A stretch of DNA of 64,000 bases from an uncultured Planctomycetota bacterium (GTDB lineage: Bacteria > Planctomycetota > Planctomycetia > Gemmatales > Gemmataceae), in NCBI GenBank assembly GCA_963849325.1, contig CAWKHF010000005.1:672001-736000 (forward strand). Reading direction: 5' to 3'. A program made the position numbers and the translations under genes. The notes below the pieces were generated by a model, which worked only from the letters and a program-made list of their open reading frames with translations, searched no databases and was not told the origin of the DNA. Of this stretch, positions 41,156 to 50,595 are shown piece after piece. How positions within the stretch are numbered: position 1 is the stretch's first letter; each line of letters starts with the position of its first letter.

Positions 41156-41430
41156 GCCGTCGTTAGCGTAGTGACTCAGGGCCGAACACGGCGCTGCGGC
41201 AGACCGGCCACGCGGCTAGCAGTTACTCGTGCTACAGCGCCGCGCTCCGCGTGAGCCGGCAGCTTCTATGATGCCAGGCCACTCGTCAAGAGGAAAATCA
41301 CCTTTTCTCGGCGTTAGTCTCCTCTCTTCCTCCCGGAACAGAGAGAGGCTAGCCGGGGGTCCAGGGGGCGGCAATCAGCGCCCCTGGTCGCCGCACGGAG
41401 GCGGCGAAATCTTCGGCAGGACGCCGACGC

Positions 41431-41585
41431 TGTCGGGGCTCCCATGCTTCTTATCCGAGCGTGGGTTCAAGACCCTGCCCAAATGGGATGCGAAGAAAGG
41501 TTGCGGGCTGCCCCATCTGAGCGCGAGGATTAAACCCCAGCAGCCGGCCGAGCACACCCGCAACCGCTCAGGAACTTCCCCGACA
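41431..41585 (-). ncRNA. Predicted bridge/seek RNA
   Basis: Closing stem 41578-85/41431-38; two internal loops whose unpaired strands match the target and donor junction sequences. Confidence 0.75.
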
Positions 41586-41609
41586 ATGACAACGCCTTGT
41601 CACTATCCG

Positions 41610-42623
41610 TCAGGCCGCCGCCTGTTGGCGGACTCCTTCGTGGTACAACCAACGCACGAAGCGGTTGGCCACGGCCGCTATCACCACCGTACTCGGTTTG
41701 CCCCGTGCCTTCAGACGCTCGGCCAGTTGCCGCCAACGCGGCTGCAGACGAGCCAACAGCCAGGCCGCCTCGATGAGCACGCGACGCAGTTCGGGATTGG
41801 CCGCCCGGATCAAACCGGCGTCGGCCTCACGCACGCCCGAGGAGCGGTTGCACGGCGTCAGGCCGCAGTACCGCGCCAACTGCTTGCCGGTTCGGAAACG
41901 GTCGAAGCGACCGATCTCGGCCCGCAACGTCCAGGCGGTGACCGGACCAATGCCCTTGATCGTCCGCAGCCAAGTTACGGTGCCGTCCACAGCGGTGACT
42001 TGTTGGAGACGTTCTTCGACGGTGCGGATCTCCTGGACGATCCAGGCCAGCCGACGCAGGCGTTGTTGCATGACCCAGCGTGCTTGTTCGGGCAGTTGAG
42101 CTTGATGCTCCAGCCAGGCGTGCCAGGCCCGCGTCCAGCGGTTGTGGCTACAGCGTAGGCGGTGTTCCCGTAGCAGGGCACCGATCTGGAGCTTGAGATT
42201 GCGTCGCTGGGCGGCCAGTTGTTGGCGGTCGCGGACCAGGGTACGGAGTTCACGGAGCTGCTGGGGTGCAATCCAGACGCGGGGTAGGTAGCCGACCCGT
42301 TCGAGGTCGGCCAGGACGCGGGCGTCGGAGAAGTCGGTTTTGTCGGGCGACTGCTTCATGCGGCTGACGAATCCGGGGTGGGCGAGGTGGACGGGCCAGG
42401 CGTAGCGGTCGGCGAGTTCTTCGGCGAGGTTGGCGGCTCCGGTGCAGGCTTCCAGGGCGGCGCCGCGGACGGCACCGAATCGCCGGACGGCCTGATCGAT
42501 GGCGTCGGCGGAGTCAGGCACGGCGCGGTTACACAAGACCTGACCCGTGGGGTCCAAGACGCACAGTTGGACGGCGTGTTGGGAGTAGTCCAGTCCGACG
42601 AACAGTGGTAGAGTGGTGGACAT
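41610..42623 (-). CDS. IS110 family recombinase/transposase
   Basis: DEDD RuvC motifs (GLDY, LEACTG, KTDFSDA) and C-terminal GIG...AEIG...F...YCGLTP..RSSG. Confidence 0.95.
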   Translation of the reverse strand: MSTTLPLFVGLDYSQHAVQLCVLDPTGQVLCNRAVPDSADAIDQAVRRFGAVRGAALEACTGAANLAEELADRYAWPVHLAHPGFVSRMKQSPDKTDFSDARVLADLERVGYLPRVWIAPQQLRELRTLVRDRQQLAAQRRNLKLQIGALLREHRLRCSHNRWTRAWHAWLEHQAQLPEQARWVMQQRLRRLAWIVQEIRTVEERLQQVTAVDGTVTWLRTIKGIGPVTAWTLRAEIGRFDRFRTGKQLARYCGLTPCNRSSGVREADAGLIRAANPELRRVLIEAAWLLARLQPRWRQLAERLKARGKPSTVVIAAVANRFVRWLYHEGVRQQAAA

Positions 42624-42805
42624 GTCGGGTTGCTCCAGATGGGGTGGCTTTTACTGGGTTACTCCATAATACCGCCGGCTTGTCGTCGGTGGGAGCAACC
42701 CGGCATCATCCCCATCTGAGCTTGTTGTTCGGCCTCTCTGGTTGCCCCATCATTACGTTTTGCGATACACTATGCTTATCGTTGCCCTGTTGAGGAGGTC
42801 AATTG

Positions 42806-42997
42806 ATGCACACGGTGAAGTACATCCACTGGGAGGAGGAGGGAGCCTGGCTGGGCTACCTTCAGGACTTCCCGGACTACTGGACGCAAGGTGAGACGCT
42901 TGAAGACTTGAAGGAACACTTGCGTGACTTGTATGCGGATTTGAGCGGTGGTCAATTCTCAGGAATTCGCCGAGTCGATGACCTGGACGTGGCATGA
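42806..42997 (+). CDS. hicB: HicB-like antitoxin (short)
   Basis: WLGYLQDFPDYWTQGETLEDLKEHL; ATGA overlap with hicA. Confidence 0.78.
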   Translation: MHTVKYIHWEEEGAWLGYLQDFPDYWTQGETLEDLKEHLRDLYADLSGGQFSGIRRVDDLDVA

Positions 42998-43233
42998 AGT
43001 GTGTTGACTTGATCCGTGCGATTGAAGGACTCGGCTGCGAGTTCGTGCGTCATGGCGGGAAGCACGACTGGTATCGTAATCCGACGACGGGGGTATCTCA
43101 GCCGGTGCCACGGCATCGGGAGATTAAGGATCGGCTGGCTCGCCACATCATCAAGATGTTGAGCAATCCGCCGGCGTCTCCTGCGAGTAGTCCGGAGGGT
43201 GAACAGCCGACGCCTCCCGTCAGCAATCAGTAA
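42994..43233 (+). CDS. hicA: HicA family mRNA interferase
   Basis: GCEFVRHGGKHDWYRNP...VPRHREI. Confidence 0.88.
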   Translation: MKCVDLIRAIEGLGCEFVRHGGKHDWYRNPTTGVSQPVPRHREIKDRLARHIIKMLSNPPASPASSPEGEQPTPPVSNQ

Positions 43234-44251: not shown

Positions 44252-44596
44252 CGCTTTTTGGGCATTTTTTTCGGTTTATTTCCTGAATTGACACAAAAAA
44301 TAGCCTTCTGATGGCCGAGTATGATCAAATAAGTAGACATTATTAGACTTTGCACAAAAACGCGGTTCTGCACAAAAACCCTTCGGGCTGCACAAAAACG
44401 CCAGTATGGCAGGTGTCGAAGTGGCAGAAAGGAGACAGATAGGAATGCGCGGATGGAAGTAACCCCTATCCGACAAGGGAGAGAGAAGCCTCTGAACCTT
44501 GCCGGATAGGGTACTTGCGATGGCCGGTTGACAAGACCGACCGTCCGGGACTTTGTAGCCCCTGGCACTGCTTCGGCAATCTACTGTTGAAGTCTC

Positions 44597-44625
44597 TTGA
44601 CTCGAAGAGTTGAGGGATCTACGAT
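44597..44625 (+). promoter_or_regulatory. Sigma70-type promoter inside the transposon left arm
   Basis: TTGACT-17 nt-TACGAT. Confidence 0.6.
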
Positions 44626-44630
44626 GGTCA

Positions 44631-44747
44631 GAGTTGGCGGTCTGACTAACCGCCGATCTCCAAAATTCTGATTATCGAGTGCCAAGAAGCGGGCACCGAA
44701 AGAGCGACTATATGTCGCTGTTTTCGGTGCCCGCTTCTTTTGTTTTG
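44631..44747 (+). ncRNA. Putative small RNA/attenuated leader
   Basis: 5' hairpin GGCGGT...ACCGCC, then long stem AAGAAGCGGGCACCGAAA/TTTCGGTGCCCGCTTCTT and T-tract. Confidence 0.5.
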
Positions 44748-44835
44748 CAGGAGATGAAGAAGGCCAGCGAACGAAGAATGGCCCGGCAACGTCGGCGACC
44801 AACTGCCAAGGAGGAGCCGACGCGCGCGGGGGAGT

Positions 44836-44909
44836 GCGGGTGTAGCTCAAACGGATAGAGCAACCTGGTGCTAACGGGAAGGTTGCAGGTTCGAGTCCTG
44901 CCACCCGCA
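44836..44909 (+). tRNA. tRNA(-like) gene, anticodon GCT, short variable arm, Arg-like body; CCA not encoded
   Basis: Acceptor GCGGGTG/CACCCGC, D arm GCTC/GAGC, T arm GCAGG-TTCGAGT-CCTGC, anticodon loop GTGCTAA. Confidence 0.8.
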
Positions 44910-45075
44910 TCCCTTTCTTACTCTTTTTTCTGAGTTTTGAGAAGTAGAGCGGCCAAGGGGGCAGGTTTTGTCCCCGCTCGCCCCTGGCGCAAGCCTGGCG
45001 CGATTGGATGGCGTCTCTGCGCTGGAACAAGGACGTAATGGCATGAGAAAAATCGACACAAATCCTCTGCTACAA

Positions 45076-45104
45076 TTTACTTACGACGATATACTGTGTA
45101 TAAT
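45076..45104 (+). promoter_or_regulatory. Transposase promoter
   Basis: TTTACT-17 nt-TATAAT. Confidence 0.65.
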
Positions 45105-45111
45105 GGCAGCA

Positions 45112-45193
45112 GAGAAAAACAAAGCCTCCGAGGTTGCTGGAAACAACCTCGGAGGCAGATGCAACCGGCGGGTTGACGCCAGAAGCACCCTCA
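45112..45193 (-). ncRNA. Predicted cis-antisense RNA to the transposase leader
   Basis: Minus-strand TTCCCA-18-TAGAAT (45229-45200); perfect 13-bp stem 45124-45156 followed on minus by TTTGTTTTT. Confidence 0.5.
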
Positions 45194-45240
45194 ATCGCAA
45201 TTCTAGCGATCCCGCCGACTCTCTGGGAAGGGATCGCTCC

Positions 45241-46497
45241 ATGAATCCCTCTGATCCACGCCAGCAAAGAGCGGAACAGATCCTTGCGACCGGCATGATT
45301 GTCCGGCAGGGACACATCTTCTTCGTGCCGAGTCAGTCCGGCAAGCCGCGCCACTCCGTCATGCTGGACGGCGAAGCGCCCTCTTGCGACTGCGCCGATT
45401 TTGAAGAACGACAGCTTCCGTGCAAGCACATTTTCGCCGTGCAAATGATGCTTGAGCGGGAGAAGACCGGCGAACCGCTACCCGAGCCGGTCAAGGTGCC
45501 GTTGCCTCCCAAGCAGAAGACCTATCCGCAGGACTGGCCGAACTACAATCTTGCCCAGACCAACGAGAAGGACCACTTTCAGGCGCTCTTGGCGGACCTA
45601 TGCCGGAACGTCCCGGAACTTCCACCTGCGAAGACCGGCCGCAAGCGTATCCCGCTGGCCGATGCGCTCTTCGCGGCCACGTTCAAAATTTACTCCACTC
45701 TCTCGGCGCGGCGCTTCATGTGCGACCTGGAGGAAGCCCACCGGCGCGGGCACGTCGGACAGGTGCCCTGCTTCAATAGCGTCCTCAACTGCCTGGACAA
45801 CGCCGACGTGAAGCCGATCCTCTTTGACCTCATCCGGCAAAGCGCTCTACCCTTGCGCGAAGTAGACACGGACTTCGCCGTGGATTCCAGCGGCTTTATG
45901 ACCTCGCGGTTCGTCCGCTGGTTCGATCAGAAGTACGGCAGCACGAAGCAGGCGCATGAGTGGGTCAAGGTCCACATCATCACCGGCGTCAAGACGAACA
46001 TCATCGCCGCCGTGGAAATCCTCGACAAGCAGGCGAACGACTTTCCGCAGTTACCTGCGCTCGTCCGGGCAGCGGCCAAGGGCTTCCGCGTGGCGGAGGT
46101 CAGCGCCGACAAGGCATACGCCGGCCGCGAGAACTTCGACGCCGTGGCGGAAGTCGGAGGCACGCTGTACGCGGCCTTCAAGTCGAACACGACCGGCAGC
46201 GTCGGCGGGCTATTCGAGAAGATGTTCCATCTGTTCTGCCTGAACCGGGAGGACTACCTGCGGCACTACCACAAGCGCTCGAACGTCGAAAGCACGTTCA
46301 GCATGGTCAAGCGGAAGTTCGGCGATTCCCTGCGGTCCAAGTCGGACGCGGCGATGGTCAACGAGGCGCTGGCGAAGCTGCTCTGCCACAACCTCGTCGT
46401 GGTGATTCACGAGATGTACGAACTGGGGATTGACCCGACGTTCGGCGCTCCGACCAGAGAGGAATTACCCTGGTTCATTCTGCGGTTCCCAGGTTGA
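45241..46497 (+). CDS. SWIM zinc finger + DDE transposase (DDE_Tnp_1-type)
   Basis: SWIM CDCADF...CKH; DW.NYN; DSSGF; WVKVH; ADKAY; YHKRSNVESTFSMVKRKFG. Confidence 0.9.
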   Translation: MNPSDPRQQRAEQILATGMIVRQGHIFFVPSQSGKPRHSVMLDGEAPSCDCADFEERQLPCKHIFAVQMMLEREKTGEPLPEPVKVPLPPKQKTYPQDWPNYNLAQTNEKDHFQALLADLCRNVPELPPAKTGRKRIPLADALFAATFKIYSTLSARRFMCDLEEAHRRGHVGQVPCFNSVLNCLDNADVKPILFDLIRQSALPLREVDTDFAVDSSGFMTSRFVRWFDQKYGSTKQAHEWVKVHIITGVKTNIIAAVEILDKQANDFPQLPALVRAAAKGFRVAEVSADKAYAGRENFDAVAEVGGTLYAAFKSNTTGSVGGLFEKMFHLFCLNREDYLRHYHKRSNVESTFSMVKRKFGDSLRSKSDAAMVNEALAKLLCHNLVVVIHEMYELGIDPTFGAPTREELPWFILRFPG

Positions 46498-46664
46498 CGC
46501 CTATGAATCGCGTGTCGGTTCGACCGGCAACGCGCTTTGTTTCATGGCCTCGACTGTCCGAAAACGACCTTTACGATAAAATGTTAGTTCGCCCGAGGTC
46601 GATGAGAAACTTCGGGCATAGAATCCTCAAGTCGAGGAACCCTGCTCGATTGCGAGGCCGGTCA

Positions 46665-47249
46665 ATGTCTGAAATCGAATCGCGACTACTCCAGTTGCTC
46701 AAAGACCGCTCGTTCACGCGGGGAAGGTTTCGCCTTGCCTCTGGCGGCGTGAGCGATTACTTCATTGACGGGAAGATGACCGAGGTTTACTCCGAAGCCG
46801 TTCCCCTGATCGGAGAAGCCCTGTACGAGCGTACCAAGGGACTGAACATTGAAGCCATCGGTGGCCTAGAGGTCGGTGCCGTGCCGCTGACCACGGCGGC
46901 CGTTTTCAGTTACGCCCTACATGGCAGAAAGATGGAAGGCTTTTGGGTTCGCGCCAAGCCAAAAGATCACGGAACTCAGAAACTCATCGAAGGGAACCTC
47001 AAGCCCGGATCGCGCGTCGTTGTCGTGGATGACGTGTTTACGAAGGGGAACTCTGCTGCTAAAGCGGTCGAGGAAGTGCGAAGGGTAGGCTGCGAAGTCG
47101 TAGCGGTTTTGGCTCTTGTGGATCGCCTCCAGGGGGCCGCAGACCTCTTCCGAGAACTCGGCGTAGTCAACTACCAACCCATCTTCACAATCCGCGATTT
47201 TGGGGTCGGAGCCGATGTTTGCGGCACAATTGAAGCCACTTCTCGCTAG
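46665..47249 (+). CDS. pyrE: Orotate phosphoribosyltransferase (transposon passenger)
   Basis: GRFRLASGGVSDYFID, GGLEVGAVP, VRAKPKDHGTQKLIEG, VVVDDVFTKGNS, LVDR. Confidence 0.85.
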   Translation: MSEIESRLLQLLKDRSFTRGRFRLASGGVSDYFIDGKMTEVYSEAVPLIGEALYERTKGLNIEAIGGLEVGAVPLTTAAVFSYALHGRKMEGFWVRAKPKDHGTQKLIEGNLKPGSRVVVVDDVFTKGNSAAKAVEEVRRVGCEVVAVLALVDRLQGAADLFRELGVVNYQPIFTIRDFGVGADVCGTIEATSR

Positions 47250-47547
47250 TGGCCCCTTGCTTGGCGATAGGCTGCGGGACGCTGCTGCCATCTGCGATTC
47301 GTGGTACTCGGCTGAGCCAAGCCTTGTCACTTTCACGCTCCAGTCGCTCCTCAAAGACTTGATCGACCGGGGTTGGACTGATCCGCAGGGCGTCCCCATC
47401 GCTCAGTATCAACCGTTTGAAACCTTGGTGCGTCCCAGTTTGATTCAGGTCGTGGATATTCTCGTCGCTACTCCGGCGGCCGAGCCGATCCCCGAACTTG
47501 ACGCTCTTCTCGTCGCCTACCGAGACTCTATTCGGGCAACCCCCTGA
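47215..47547 (+). CDS. Hypothetical protein (transposon passenger), overlapping pyrE 3' end
   Basis: GGAG RBS + ATG; 110 aa helical-looking ORF. Confidence 0.5.
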   Translation: MFAAQLKPLLASGPLLGDRLRDAAAICDSWYSAEPSLVTFTLQSLLKDLIDRGWTDPQGVPIAQYQPFETLVRPSLIQVVDILVATPAAEPIPELDALLVAYRDSIRATP

Positions 47548-47673
47548 CTCCTCTCCTGCCATCCTGGCACTTGCACAAAAACTCCTCCGCCTGCACAAAA
47601 ACTCGGTCAATCCGAGGTCTTTTTGTGCAAAGTCACATTATTAGACAAGCGAGAGAACGTGTGGAAATGCCTT

Positions 47674-47727
47674 GAGCCTGAAGCGTAAGCGAAGAAGGGT
47701 ATCCTTCTTCGCTTACGCTTCAGGCTC
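47674..47727. repeat. REP-like palindrome, family C
   Basis: GAGCCTGAAGCGTAAGCGAAGAAGG/CCTTCTTCGCTTACGCTTCAGGCTC perfect arms. Confidence 0.85.
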
Positions 47728-49274: not shown

Positions 49275-49603
49275 GTCGCCTCTCGATTCGCTCTCGGGGC
49301 TGTCCACACGGCAAGGGCGAAGCACCAGCACCGCGGCGCGACACGGGCAGGGCGATCTGCGCCACTACCCTGTGTCCGGTGCTCGATACTTTCGTAGTTG
49401 GTTTCGACCGAGGGCCGGACAACGCTCCAAGCCGACTCGCCAGGTTCACCATCTCCCCCCCGTGCGCGGAGCGATGACAAGGAGTGTGCGCTCCCTGCCG
49501 GCTGTGACGGTTGCGCCGGAAAAGATGGCCGGGCCGGTGTTGCCCCCTATGCGTGCGAGGGTAGAACAAAGGAGTGGAGAGTGAAAGGTGGAGGGTGAAG
49601 GCG

Positions 49604-49921
49604 ATGACAGGCAAGTCGCGCAAGCAACAGATCGAGGAAATGCTGGTGGAAGACCCCAACGACCCGTTCCTGCGTTACGGGCTGGCGATGGAGTACGTCA
49701 GCGCCGGGCAGGACGACGAGGCGGTGCGCTGTTTTCAGGAGTTGCTGCGCGTGGCGTCGGACTATGTGCCGGCCTACATGCAGGCGGGGCGGACCCTGGC
49801 CCGGCTTGGACGCGAGGAGGAGGCGCGCGAGCTGTTTCGCAGTGGCATCGCCGTGGCCCGGCAGAAGGGCGACGAGCATGCGGCCGGCGAGATGCAAGGT
49901 TTTCTGGAAGGGCTGGACTGA
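49604..49921 (+). CDS. Small TPR protein
   Basis: DPNDPFLRYGLAMEY...DYVPAYMQAG...GDEHAAGEM. Confidence 0.8.
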   Translation: MTGKSRKQQIEEMLVEDPNDPFLRYGLAMEYVSAGQDDEAVRCFQELLRVASDYVPAYMQAGRTLARLGREEEARELFRSGIAVARQKGDEHAAGEMQGFLEGLD

Positions 49922-50139
49922 GCCGGCGTATCCGGGGCCATGCGCCCACCGTCGCCTTCTCCCGTCTTGCTTTCCGTTTCCCAACGGTTATTCTGAGGGG
50001 TGAAACGCCATTCGCCTTTCGCGCGGTCTCGCGCACGCTGTCTCCGCCTCTTCGGCACTTATCCTCTCCGGGCCGGGCGAACGGTCGGCCGGCGTCCGGG
50101 GAGACACTTCGGAAGGTTCGCGTGAGGAGGGTCCGGACC

Positions 50140-50595
50140 ATGAAACTCGAGGAACTGCTGGTCAGCCGTCACATCGCGTTCCAACGGCTGCCGCACCGGC
50201 GCACGTACACGGCCAACCGCATGGCCCAGGCGCTGCACGTCAAGGGACGGGAGGTGGCCAAAACCGTACTCGTGCGCACCGGCCACGGCCACGTTCTGGC
50301 CGTGCTGCCGGCCACGCATCACGTCGATCTCGAACAGCTCGGCGAAGATCTCGGCGGAGAGCGCGTCGAGTTGGCCAACGAGGAGGAAATGGATCGCCTC
50401 TTCCCCGACTGCGAGCGCGGCGCTCTGCCGCCGTTCGGCAGCCTGTACCAGGTGCCGACCATCATGGACGAAAGCCTGAGCGAAGACCCGACCATCGTTT
50501 TCGAGGCGCAGGACCACGAGCAGGCCATCCGCATGTCGCGGGAAGATTACGAGGCCGTCGAGCACCCGCGCCGCGGCCGCTTCGCTCATCGCTGA
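50140..50595 (+). CDS. YbaK/EbsC family aminoacyl-tRNA deacylase-like protein
   Basis: VAKTVLV, LAVLPA, FPDCERGALPPFGSLY. Confidence 0.85.
   Translation: MKLEELLVSRHIAFQRLPHRRTYTANRMAQALHVKGREVAKTVLVRTGHGHVLAVLPATHHVDLEQLGEDLGGERVELANEEEMDRLFPDCERGALPPFGSLYQVPTIMDESLSEDPTIVFEAQDHEQAIRMSREDYEAVEHPRRGRFAHR

Follow-up and report, generated by a model that had tools for sequence, protein, structure and literature searches.

A transposon-borne tRNA combining arginine identity elements with a serine GCU anticodon in a planctomycete genome

A tRNA gene that joins an arginine-type body to the serine anticodon GCU was found inside an intact IS5-like transposon in the 64,000-nucleotide stretch of soil planctomycete DNA analyzed here (the window). 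The reading that we prefer, to which we give a probability of roughly 0.45, is that the gene is a cargo tRNA maintained by selection, which would be charged with arginine and would read the codons AGC and AGU, probably at a low level. The coordinates of the gene and of the element around it are collected in Table 1.

The Rfam tRNA model (RF00005) matched exactly the 74 nt of the gene, over model positions 1–71, with 60.3 bits (E 1.5e-10; gathering threshold 29), and flagged the 27:43 pair as non-standard. ARAGORN called a tRNA at 44835–44912 with the anticodon gct, the sole tRNA called in the whole window. The sequence reads GCGGGUG UA GCUC AAACGGAUA GAGC A ACCUG GUGCUAA in its 5′ part and CGGGA AGGUU GCAGG UUCGAGU CCUGC CACCCGC A in its 3′ part. 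U8, A14, A15 with U48, G18G19, and TTCGA are all present, the acceptor stem has 7 bp and the T stem 5 bp, and the variable loop is the 5-nt AGGUU. The D-loop, AAACGGAUA, ends in GGAUA (A20), and both its length and this ending are as in the host tRNA-Arg genes. The 7-nt anticodon loop, GUGCUAA, provides G32, U33, G34, C35, U36, A37, and A38, and an A27·A43 mismatch lies in the stem beneath it. The discriminator is A73 and is followed by TCC in the 3′ flank, so that CCA is not encoded; an extra U(-1):A73 pair is possible, with the T stem still at five pairs. Of the 90 tRNAs that ARAGORN called in the 8.16-Mb genome with a three-base anticodon, the cargo tRNA alone has G32. The full cloverleaf described in the initial annotation, with all the features and oddities listed there, was confirmed by the sequence, by Rfam, and by ARAGORN. 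Because the host genome already carries a canonical 90-nt tRNA-Ser(GCU) (C9:487349), a tRNA-Arg(UCU), and a tRNA-Arg(CCU), the cargo tRNA is supernumerary.

The body was typed by arm-by-arm identity to the host's own tRNAs over the 43 positions of the D-arm and the variable/T-arm. Identity was highest with tRNA-Arg, at 40/43 for the ACG gene, 39/43 for UCG, 38/43 for CCG, and 31/43 for UCU, and was 35/43 with a tRNA-Asn from a host tRNA array. When a tRNA pattern blind to the anticodon was run over 267 genomes of the order, allowing up to two mismatches, the only exact matches were the window tRNA and a relative in another genus (G159), and the next five, within the two mismatches, were tRNA-Arg(UCU) genes from five genomes. 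The earlier statement that the body resembles tRNA-Arg(UCU) is thus upheld across the order, where the nearest canonical genes are of this type, but not within the host genome, where the ACG, UCG, and CCG genes are closer.

The tRNA also carries what a bacterial arginyl-tRNA synthetase (ArgRS) is described to read. The bacterial arginine identity set is given as A/G73, A20, C35, and U/G36, with A20 and C35 the strongest (Giegé and Eriani, PMC9976931), and Table 1 of the same source lists G73 and a large variable region as the serine determinants. A20, C35, U36, and A73 are all present in the cargo tRNA, which agrees with what had been claimed of its ArgRS set. Likewise, the long variable arm needed by SerRS had been reported as absent, and indeed the variable loop has only 5 nt and the discriminator is A73, not G73, whereas the host tRNA-Ser genes are 87–90 nt long. 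The anticodon itself is not one for an arginine codon (NCG, or CU preceded by U or C), as GCU pairs with AGC and AGU. One ArgRS is encoded in the host genome, and it has the N-terminal D-loop-reading domain Arg_tRNA_synt_N. With the canonical bacterial tRNA-Arg(UCU), the cargo tRNA shares the D-arm with A20, C35, U36, A37, A73, the 5-nt variable loop, and the T-arm; it differs in having G34 instead of U, G32 instead of C, an unpaired 27:43, and a place on a transposon. It further has G1-C72, where all five host tRNA-Arg genes outside the arrays have G1·U72.

The element that carries the tRNA spans 44346–47634 (3,289 bp) and is intact, and the tRNA begins 490 nt inside its left end. The position of the gene between inverted repeats and a target-site duplication bears out its initial description as transposon-borne. 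The terminal inverted repeats are 15 nt long and resemble those of the intact paralogous copy in the host genome (GGCTTTGTTGCCAAAC) and of the acidobacterial copies described below (GGCTTTGCACA); their start, GGCTTTGTTG, is presumably reminiscent of IS903. For the motif TGCACAAAAAC, 0.47 occurrences would be expected in the window and seven were counted, six of which fall at one or other end of the element. In the congener G109 (locus L210), the flanks lie 170 nt apart and ACATTATTA is found once, uninterrupted, and the congener G100 has the same arrangement; the element is thus a transposon insertion for which an empty site serves as control. Related element ends stand at the same junction in five other congeners, where ARAGORN found no tRNA within the ~1.4 kb examined. 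The orthologous element of genome G108 also has the orotate phosphoribosyltransferase-like gene, and there the distance from the left end to this gene is ~1.78 kb less, a difference of about the size of the tRNA-plus-transposase unit.

Table 1. Features of the transposon and its tRNA gene, with positions in the window
Feature	Position	Strand	Basis
Target-site duplication, left copy, 9 bp, ACATTATTA	44337–44345		Same 9-mer after right end
Left terminal inverted repeat, GACTTTGCACAAAAA	44346–44360	+	Reverse complement of 47620–47634
Three subterminal repeats, TGCACAAAAAC	44351–44399	+	Motif count
Sigma-70-like promoter, TTGACT-N17-TACGAT	44597–44625	+	9/12 positions, consensus match only
Terminator-like hairpin, 18-bp perfect stem followed by TTTTGTTTTG	44684–44748	+	100% complementary; T-run read
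GC-rich leader hairpin directly 5′ of tRNA	44782–44830	+	Fold; kept in C6, G107, and G108
tRNA gene, class I, Arg-type body, A73, no encoded CCA	44836–44909	+	Rfam, ARAGORN, arm comparison
Anticodon GCU (G34 C35 U36)	44870–44872	+	ARAGORN (anticodon position 36 from 44835), Rfam
Transposase promoter-like site, TTTACT-N17-TATAAT	45076–45104	+	10/12 positions; in copies with and without tRNA
Transposase-leader hairpin	45124–45156	+	One compensatory pair change between copies; also listed on minus strand
Transposase, 418 aa, SWIM zinc finger and DDE_Tnp_1	45241–46497	+	Pfam
Second cargo gene, orotate phosphoribosyltransferase-like ORF	46665–47249	+	TIGR00336, 127.6 bits (cut-off 106.8)
Right-end subterminal repeats	47572–47629		Motif count
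Right terminal inverted repeat, TTTTTGTGCAAAGTC	47620–47634	-	Inverted repeat of left end
Target-site duplication, right copy, ACATTATTA	47635–47643		9 bp

By its DDE_Tnp_1 transposase between terminal inverted repeats and its target-site duplication, the element is IS5-like, as judged from sequence, although the NCBIfam IS5 model NF033579 scored 94.1 bits on the transposase, below its cut-off of 140. Together with DDE_Tnp_1, the short terminal repeats, the 9–10-bp target duplication, and the multiple copies per genome are what it has in common with IS5-family insertion sequences, from which it is set apart by an N-terminal SWIM zinc finger, the score below the NCBIfam cut-off, and the tRNA passenger. 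Homologues of the transposase number at least 7,689; their source names point to Gemmataceae and Acidobacteria, and there are many archaeal copies too, in methanogens.

Several features of the surroundings may be recorded here. A HicA toxin gene (45.4 bits) and, before it, a UPF0150-like ORF below the cut-off lie at 42806–43233, 1.1 kb to the left of the transposon, and further left is an IS110-family element (41181–42733, by Pfam) with three more copies at 98% identity in the genome. Just beyond the right end there is a perfect palindrome with 25-nt arms (47674–47727), which belongs to a REP-like repeat that recurs hundreds of times and is present on all large contigs. A 335-aa ORF 2 kb to the right of the transposon (49588–50595) has a YbaK/ProX-type aminoacyl-tRNA editing domain (104 bits); it was considered as a partner of the tRNA and set aside because it is ~2 kb outside the element. 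A 71% paralogue of the orotate phosphoribosyltransferase-like ORF lies elsewhere on the same contig of the host genome (G000 C5:814150–814701), between a tRNA-Leu(GAG) and a tRNA-Gln(CUG).

Besides the window element, the host genome contains one intact copy (C6, with 48% protein identity) and five or six that have decayed. The C6 copy measures 2,514 bp and has perfect 16-nt inverted repeats and a 10-bp duplication. Its homology to the window element starts sharply at 44781/2 and ends at the transposase stop codon, and over this stretch both share the order of GC-rich leader hairpin, tRNA, U-rich trailer, TTTACT-N17-TATAAT, structured leader, and transposase. The closest relative of the transposase outside (L007, 79% protein identity) and three copies from the same genus (L068, L069, and L071) share the promoter and the leader and have no tRNA. 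At the 60 genome loci searched with ARAGORN, a tRNA lies inside the element in three cases, all in one Acidobacteriota MAG; at the 80 metagenome loci, a tRNA was found at only one, which appears to resemble the flank case of L033 (below), and at none was it clearly inside the element. The three acidobacterial copies are identical, sharing a 2,533-bp unit at 99.9–100%, and have a 94-nt long-arm tRNA with the anticodon UAU placed 128 nt upstream of the transposase. With a conserved promoter belonging to the transposase itself, and with no tRNA in most relatives, the tRNA is accessory cargo, and hence neither a cofactor of transposition nor a processing signal needed by the element. On the same counts, the candidate explanation that the tRNA is a required part of this transposon family was rejected. 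What lies next to the tRNA varies from element to element: a 75-aa ORF in the C6 copy, a 174-aa ORF in the acidobacterial copies (neither with a Pfam family), and nothing on C5.

A Methanothrix MAG has a compact copy of this transposase family with two tRNAs ~100 nt beyond it (L033, 934–1139): a long-arm tRNA with G73 and the anticodon UAG, and a class I tRNA of 72 nt whose anticodon is GCU and which has C33, a D-loop with GGAUA, and a mismatch at 27:43. This locus was not retained as a case of cargo, as the homology between copies starts at 1239, ~100 nt downstream of the tRNAs, which places them outside the element. Beside one of the acidobacterial copies there is a match to a group II intron domain (L021, 5771–5882; 43.8 bits, gathering threshold 40).

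Compared with its sisters, the window tRNA is one of a set of tRNAs on related transposon copies whose sequences assign body and anticodon to different amino acids. At the equivalent position, the C6 copy carries an 86-nt tRNA with a long arm, A73, and the anticodon AGC; G108 carries a close relative of it with the anticodon UUC; and G107 carries a 92-nt tRNA with a long arm, G73, the anticodon UAG, and a Ser-like acceptor stem. Among the decayed copies, the one at C6:448.6k has a class I tRNA with the anticodon GGU and the same 27:43 mismatch, and the one on C2 has a tRNA with the anticodon UUA and a tRNA-Sec-like sequence below threshold. In global alignments to the host tRNAs, where similarities were modest, the AGC and UUC genes, with A73, were nearest to tRNA-Leu, the UAG gene of G107 to tRNA-Sec/Ser, and the acidobacterial UAU gene to tRNA-Ser. 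As the anticodon is not read by LeuRS or SerRS, according to the account in PMC11028032, Leu- and Ser-type bodies are what would be expected if anticodons wander while charging is kept. Such elements may be spreading tRNAs that deliberately misread the genetic code.

Random anticodon decay in homologues had been named in the initial annotation as something that would refute its reading, and the check came out in favour of that reading: the two closest relatives both keep GCU. The relative in G159 sits in another mobile context, flanked by an HTH_17 ORF and by an ORF that has an NrS-1 polymerase domain. Its D-arm is identical, it shares GCU and the mismatch at 27:43, and its acceptor stem, different in several pairs, is still fully paired; the anticodon stem, by contrast, is broken, and G73 is the discriminator. 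A further relative of the tRNA region is present as contigs in a soil RNA library (run X1; word share 0.04). A 240-nt contig from it covers 44782–44946 with 19 substitutions and 6 indels, none of them listed in 44842–44902, and its four acceptor-stem changes make up two compensatory pairs, 44838/44906 and 44841/44903. Its upstream flank diverges exactly at 44782, where the homology of both the paralogue and the contig starts. What the contig establishes is the existence of a relative in which core and anticodon are the same; its origin from an RNA library is no proof of transcription. G at 44870 (G34) is shared with two independent relatives.

Covariation was examined in a set of three class I tRNAs: those of the window, of G159, and of the decayed copy at C6:448.6k. 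Both partners have changed in seven of the 21 pairs, pairing is complete (100%) in the acceptor, D, and T stems, and 27:43 is unpaired in all three. The observed covariation score was reached by none of 500 shuffles, a weak control with only three sequences. Scans with exact patterns for further relatives of the tRNA gave no matches in metagenome contigs and none in viral contigs. Taken together, the G159 relative, the soil contig, and the covariation speak against recent random decay and support selection on a folded tRNA that would keep GCU.

The leader hairpin just 5′ of the tRNA is found in the window, C6, G107, and G108 and in two decayed copies, and in these last two it is preceded by good sigma-70-like promoters. 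In the window element, the site at 44597–44625 is the only promoter-like site on the plus strand upstream of the tRNA, and a search for a sigma-70-like promoter between the terminator-like hairpin (44684–44748) and the tRNA found none. A hairpin with a T-run lies at the same place as 44684–44748 in G108 and G107. The tRNA output is probably kept low, as would follow from the strong terminator-like hairpin upstream and from the search that found no promoter of its own. The leader hairpin was also used as a strict search pattern against 252 family genomes, of which 93 matched; this route was dropped because the matches listed look like chance in GC-rich DNA, the exceptions among them being G000 (two sites), G107, and G108. 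The promoter-like site and, ~60 nt further on, the terminator-like hairpin (44597–44748) could by themselves form a small RNA of ~110 nt or an attenuator before the tRNA.

The reading that we prefer for the GCU gene can be set out as follows. A planctomycete tRNA-Arg would have acquired G at position 34 and kept the ArgRS recognition set (A20, C35, U36, and A73). Because ArgRS reads A20, C35, and U36, and not position 34, the single ArgRS of the host would charge the cargo tRNA with arginine, and G34 would be the only kind of anticodon change that spares ArgRS recognition while leaving the arginine box. Pairing with the serine codons AGC and AGU would then make the molecule a natural Ser-to-Arg missense tRNA, though one whose decoding may be weakened by G32 and by the unpaired 27:43. 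As a possible gain for the element, recoding of its own transposase was considered and rejected, since 7 of the 9 AGY codons of the transposase stand where 94–110 of 112 homologues have serine and none stands at a conserved arginine; with AGC codons at conserved serine positions, an arginine-inserting GCU tRNA would damage its own transposase. When the GCN codons of the paralogue were checked for recoding, no pattern was found.

Of the other explanations, the one that deserves most weight, although we consider it doubtful, is that a tRNA-shaped RNA is made and does not decode. It might be the decoy or substrate of a tRNA-targeting enzyme, for example an anticodon nuclease, toxin, or modification enzyme; other conceivable roles are regulation of the element or host and the donation of aminoacyl groups outside the ribosome. 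G32 and the conserved A27·A43 are unusual for a decoder and could impair decoding; the GC-rich leader hairpin, with a conserved loop sequence in four elements, suggests a larger RNA or a protein-binding unit; the transposon-associated allo-tRNA(UAU) variants of Mukai et al. (PMC5389517) are described as inactive in translation; and a HicA toxin gene is found 1.1 kb outside the element. Yet everything expected of a decoder has been kept, namely the 7-nt loop, U33, A37, the acceptor stem, the T-loop, and the D-loop, and the anticodon loop is identical in the soil relative despite a difference of ~15% in the flanks. Nor does any partner gene travel with the tRNA, whose neighbours vary between elements, and the transposase, under a conserved promoter of its own, works in most relatives without a tRNA.

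Both remaining explanations are less likely than a non-translational RNA. A redundant tRNA-Arg(UCU) or tRNA-Arg(CCU) could have hitch-hiked on the transposon, mutated at position 34, and be on its way to a pseudogene: GCU is one substitution at this position away from UCU or CCU, the canonical genes closest to the cargo tRNA in the rest of the order have the anticodon UCU, the host already possesses tRNA-Arg(UCU), tRNA-Arg(CCU), and the long-arm tRNA-Ser(GCU), the anticodon stem in G159 is damaged, and no promoter turned up downstream of the terminator-like hairpin and ahead of the tRNA. We nevertheless hold this decay to be improbable, given that the inherited 27:43 mismatch is the only flaw in four otherwise intact stems, that acceptor stems have been turned over by compensatory pairs in three lineages with GCU retained, that the core is identical in a soil relative whose flanks diverge by ~15%, and that sister elements bear other mismatched yet well-folded tRNAs, which independent decay would not be expected to yield. 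That the gene is a true serine decoder, charged with serine by a non-standard route and adding to the capacity to read AGY, is suggested by the anticodon alone and strikes us as very improbable: both the large variable region and the G73 listed for bacterial tRNA-Ser (PMC9976931, Table 1) are absent, the body matches tRNA-Arg and not tRNA-Ser, and the canonical 90-nt tRNA-Ser(GCU) is in place at C9:487349.

The closest precedents for an arginine-charged tRNA of this kind are the allo-tRNAs and tRNAProX. Allo-tRNAs, from Acidobacteria and other bacteria, are likewise natural bacterial tRNAs whose body and anticodon disagree and that lie on or beside mobile elements. As described in PMC5389517, they are associated with transposon-related genes and toxin-antitoxin loci, their anticodons are highly diverse, and those with non-cognate anticodons insert serine at leucine codons in E. 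coli. When six allo-tRNA(UAU) variants were made into amber suppressors, none was active in E. coli (Mukai et al. 2017, PMC5389517), and the same authors proposed a non-translational role for the transposon-associated allo-tRNA(UAU). In that account, allo-tRNAs have an 8/4 or 9/3 arrangement of acceptor and T stems and a long variable arm with serine (or alanine) identity, whereas the cargo tRNA of the window is a 7/5, class I, Arg-type molecule and shows neither trait. The acidobacterial UAU cargo tRNA, carried by the same transposase family, looks like the most abundant UAU group described there and, by its sequence, probably belongs to the allo-tRNAs. The word Planctomycetes does not occur in the text of PMC5389517. 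tRNAProX, from Streptomyces and Kitasatospora (PMC10404621, PMC11415595), is described with proline identity, A34, A33, and an adjacent proSx/ProRSx gene; the cargo tRNA differs in its arginine identity, G34, and U33, and it would rely on the single host ArgRS, with no synthetase gene in the element. The string "transpos" is absent from the text of both tRNAProX papers. In the literature searched, no description was found of a tRNA with arginine identity and a serine anticodon, or of a tRNA as passenger of an insertion sequence.

Few examples of natural code-breaking tRNAs are described in the sources consulted; they are the allo-tRNAs, tRNAProX, and the CUG decoders of yeast. To these, the present case adds a different mismatch logic, in which the one change to G34 would keep ArgRS charging and move decoding to serine codons; a clear vehicle, in the form of an intact, recently mobile transposon with an empty-site control; and a comparative series of sister elements with other mismatched tRNAs at the same position. 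Logic, vehicle, and series make it directly testable whether, and why, mobile elements spread mistranslating tRNAs.

A much broader view, which we offer as speculation and regard as unlikely, is that this family of SWIM-DDE transposons is a vehicle for a code-bending tRNA toolkit in at least two soil phyla, serving programmed mistranslation switched by conditions. Its members would put arginine at AGY, leucine at GCN and GAA, and serine at CUA and AUA, and there would be forms resembling nonsense suppressors as well. With a terminator and a conserved leader hairpin holding them almost silent, the tRNAs would be turned on under particular conditions, and they might be used as an addiction or abortive-infection weapon or to generate diversity under stress.

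Unusual tRNAs also occur apart from the transposons. ARAGORN called a second short (71-nt) tRNA-Ser(gct) in the host genome (G000 C5:1106208–1106278), directly after a tRNA-Pro(UGG) and a tRNA-Ser(CGA). In the host genome (G000 C1:515629–516193, C4:433741–435175, and C12:838476–839555) and in many members of the family (loci L075, L076, L079, L080, L093, and L095), 7 to 24 tRNA genes are packed into dense arrays, some of them odd. The odd members include a 74-nt "tRNA-Leu" that has no long arm and several tRNAs with C33. The sole tRNA-Asn(GUU) of the host genome lies inside such an array, and in the L076 array, UUA is found in the slot that Asn(GUU) occupies in other arrays.
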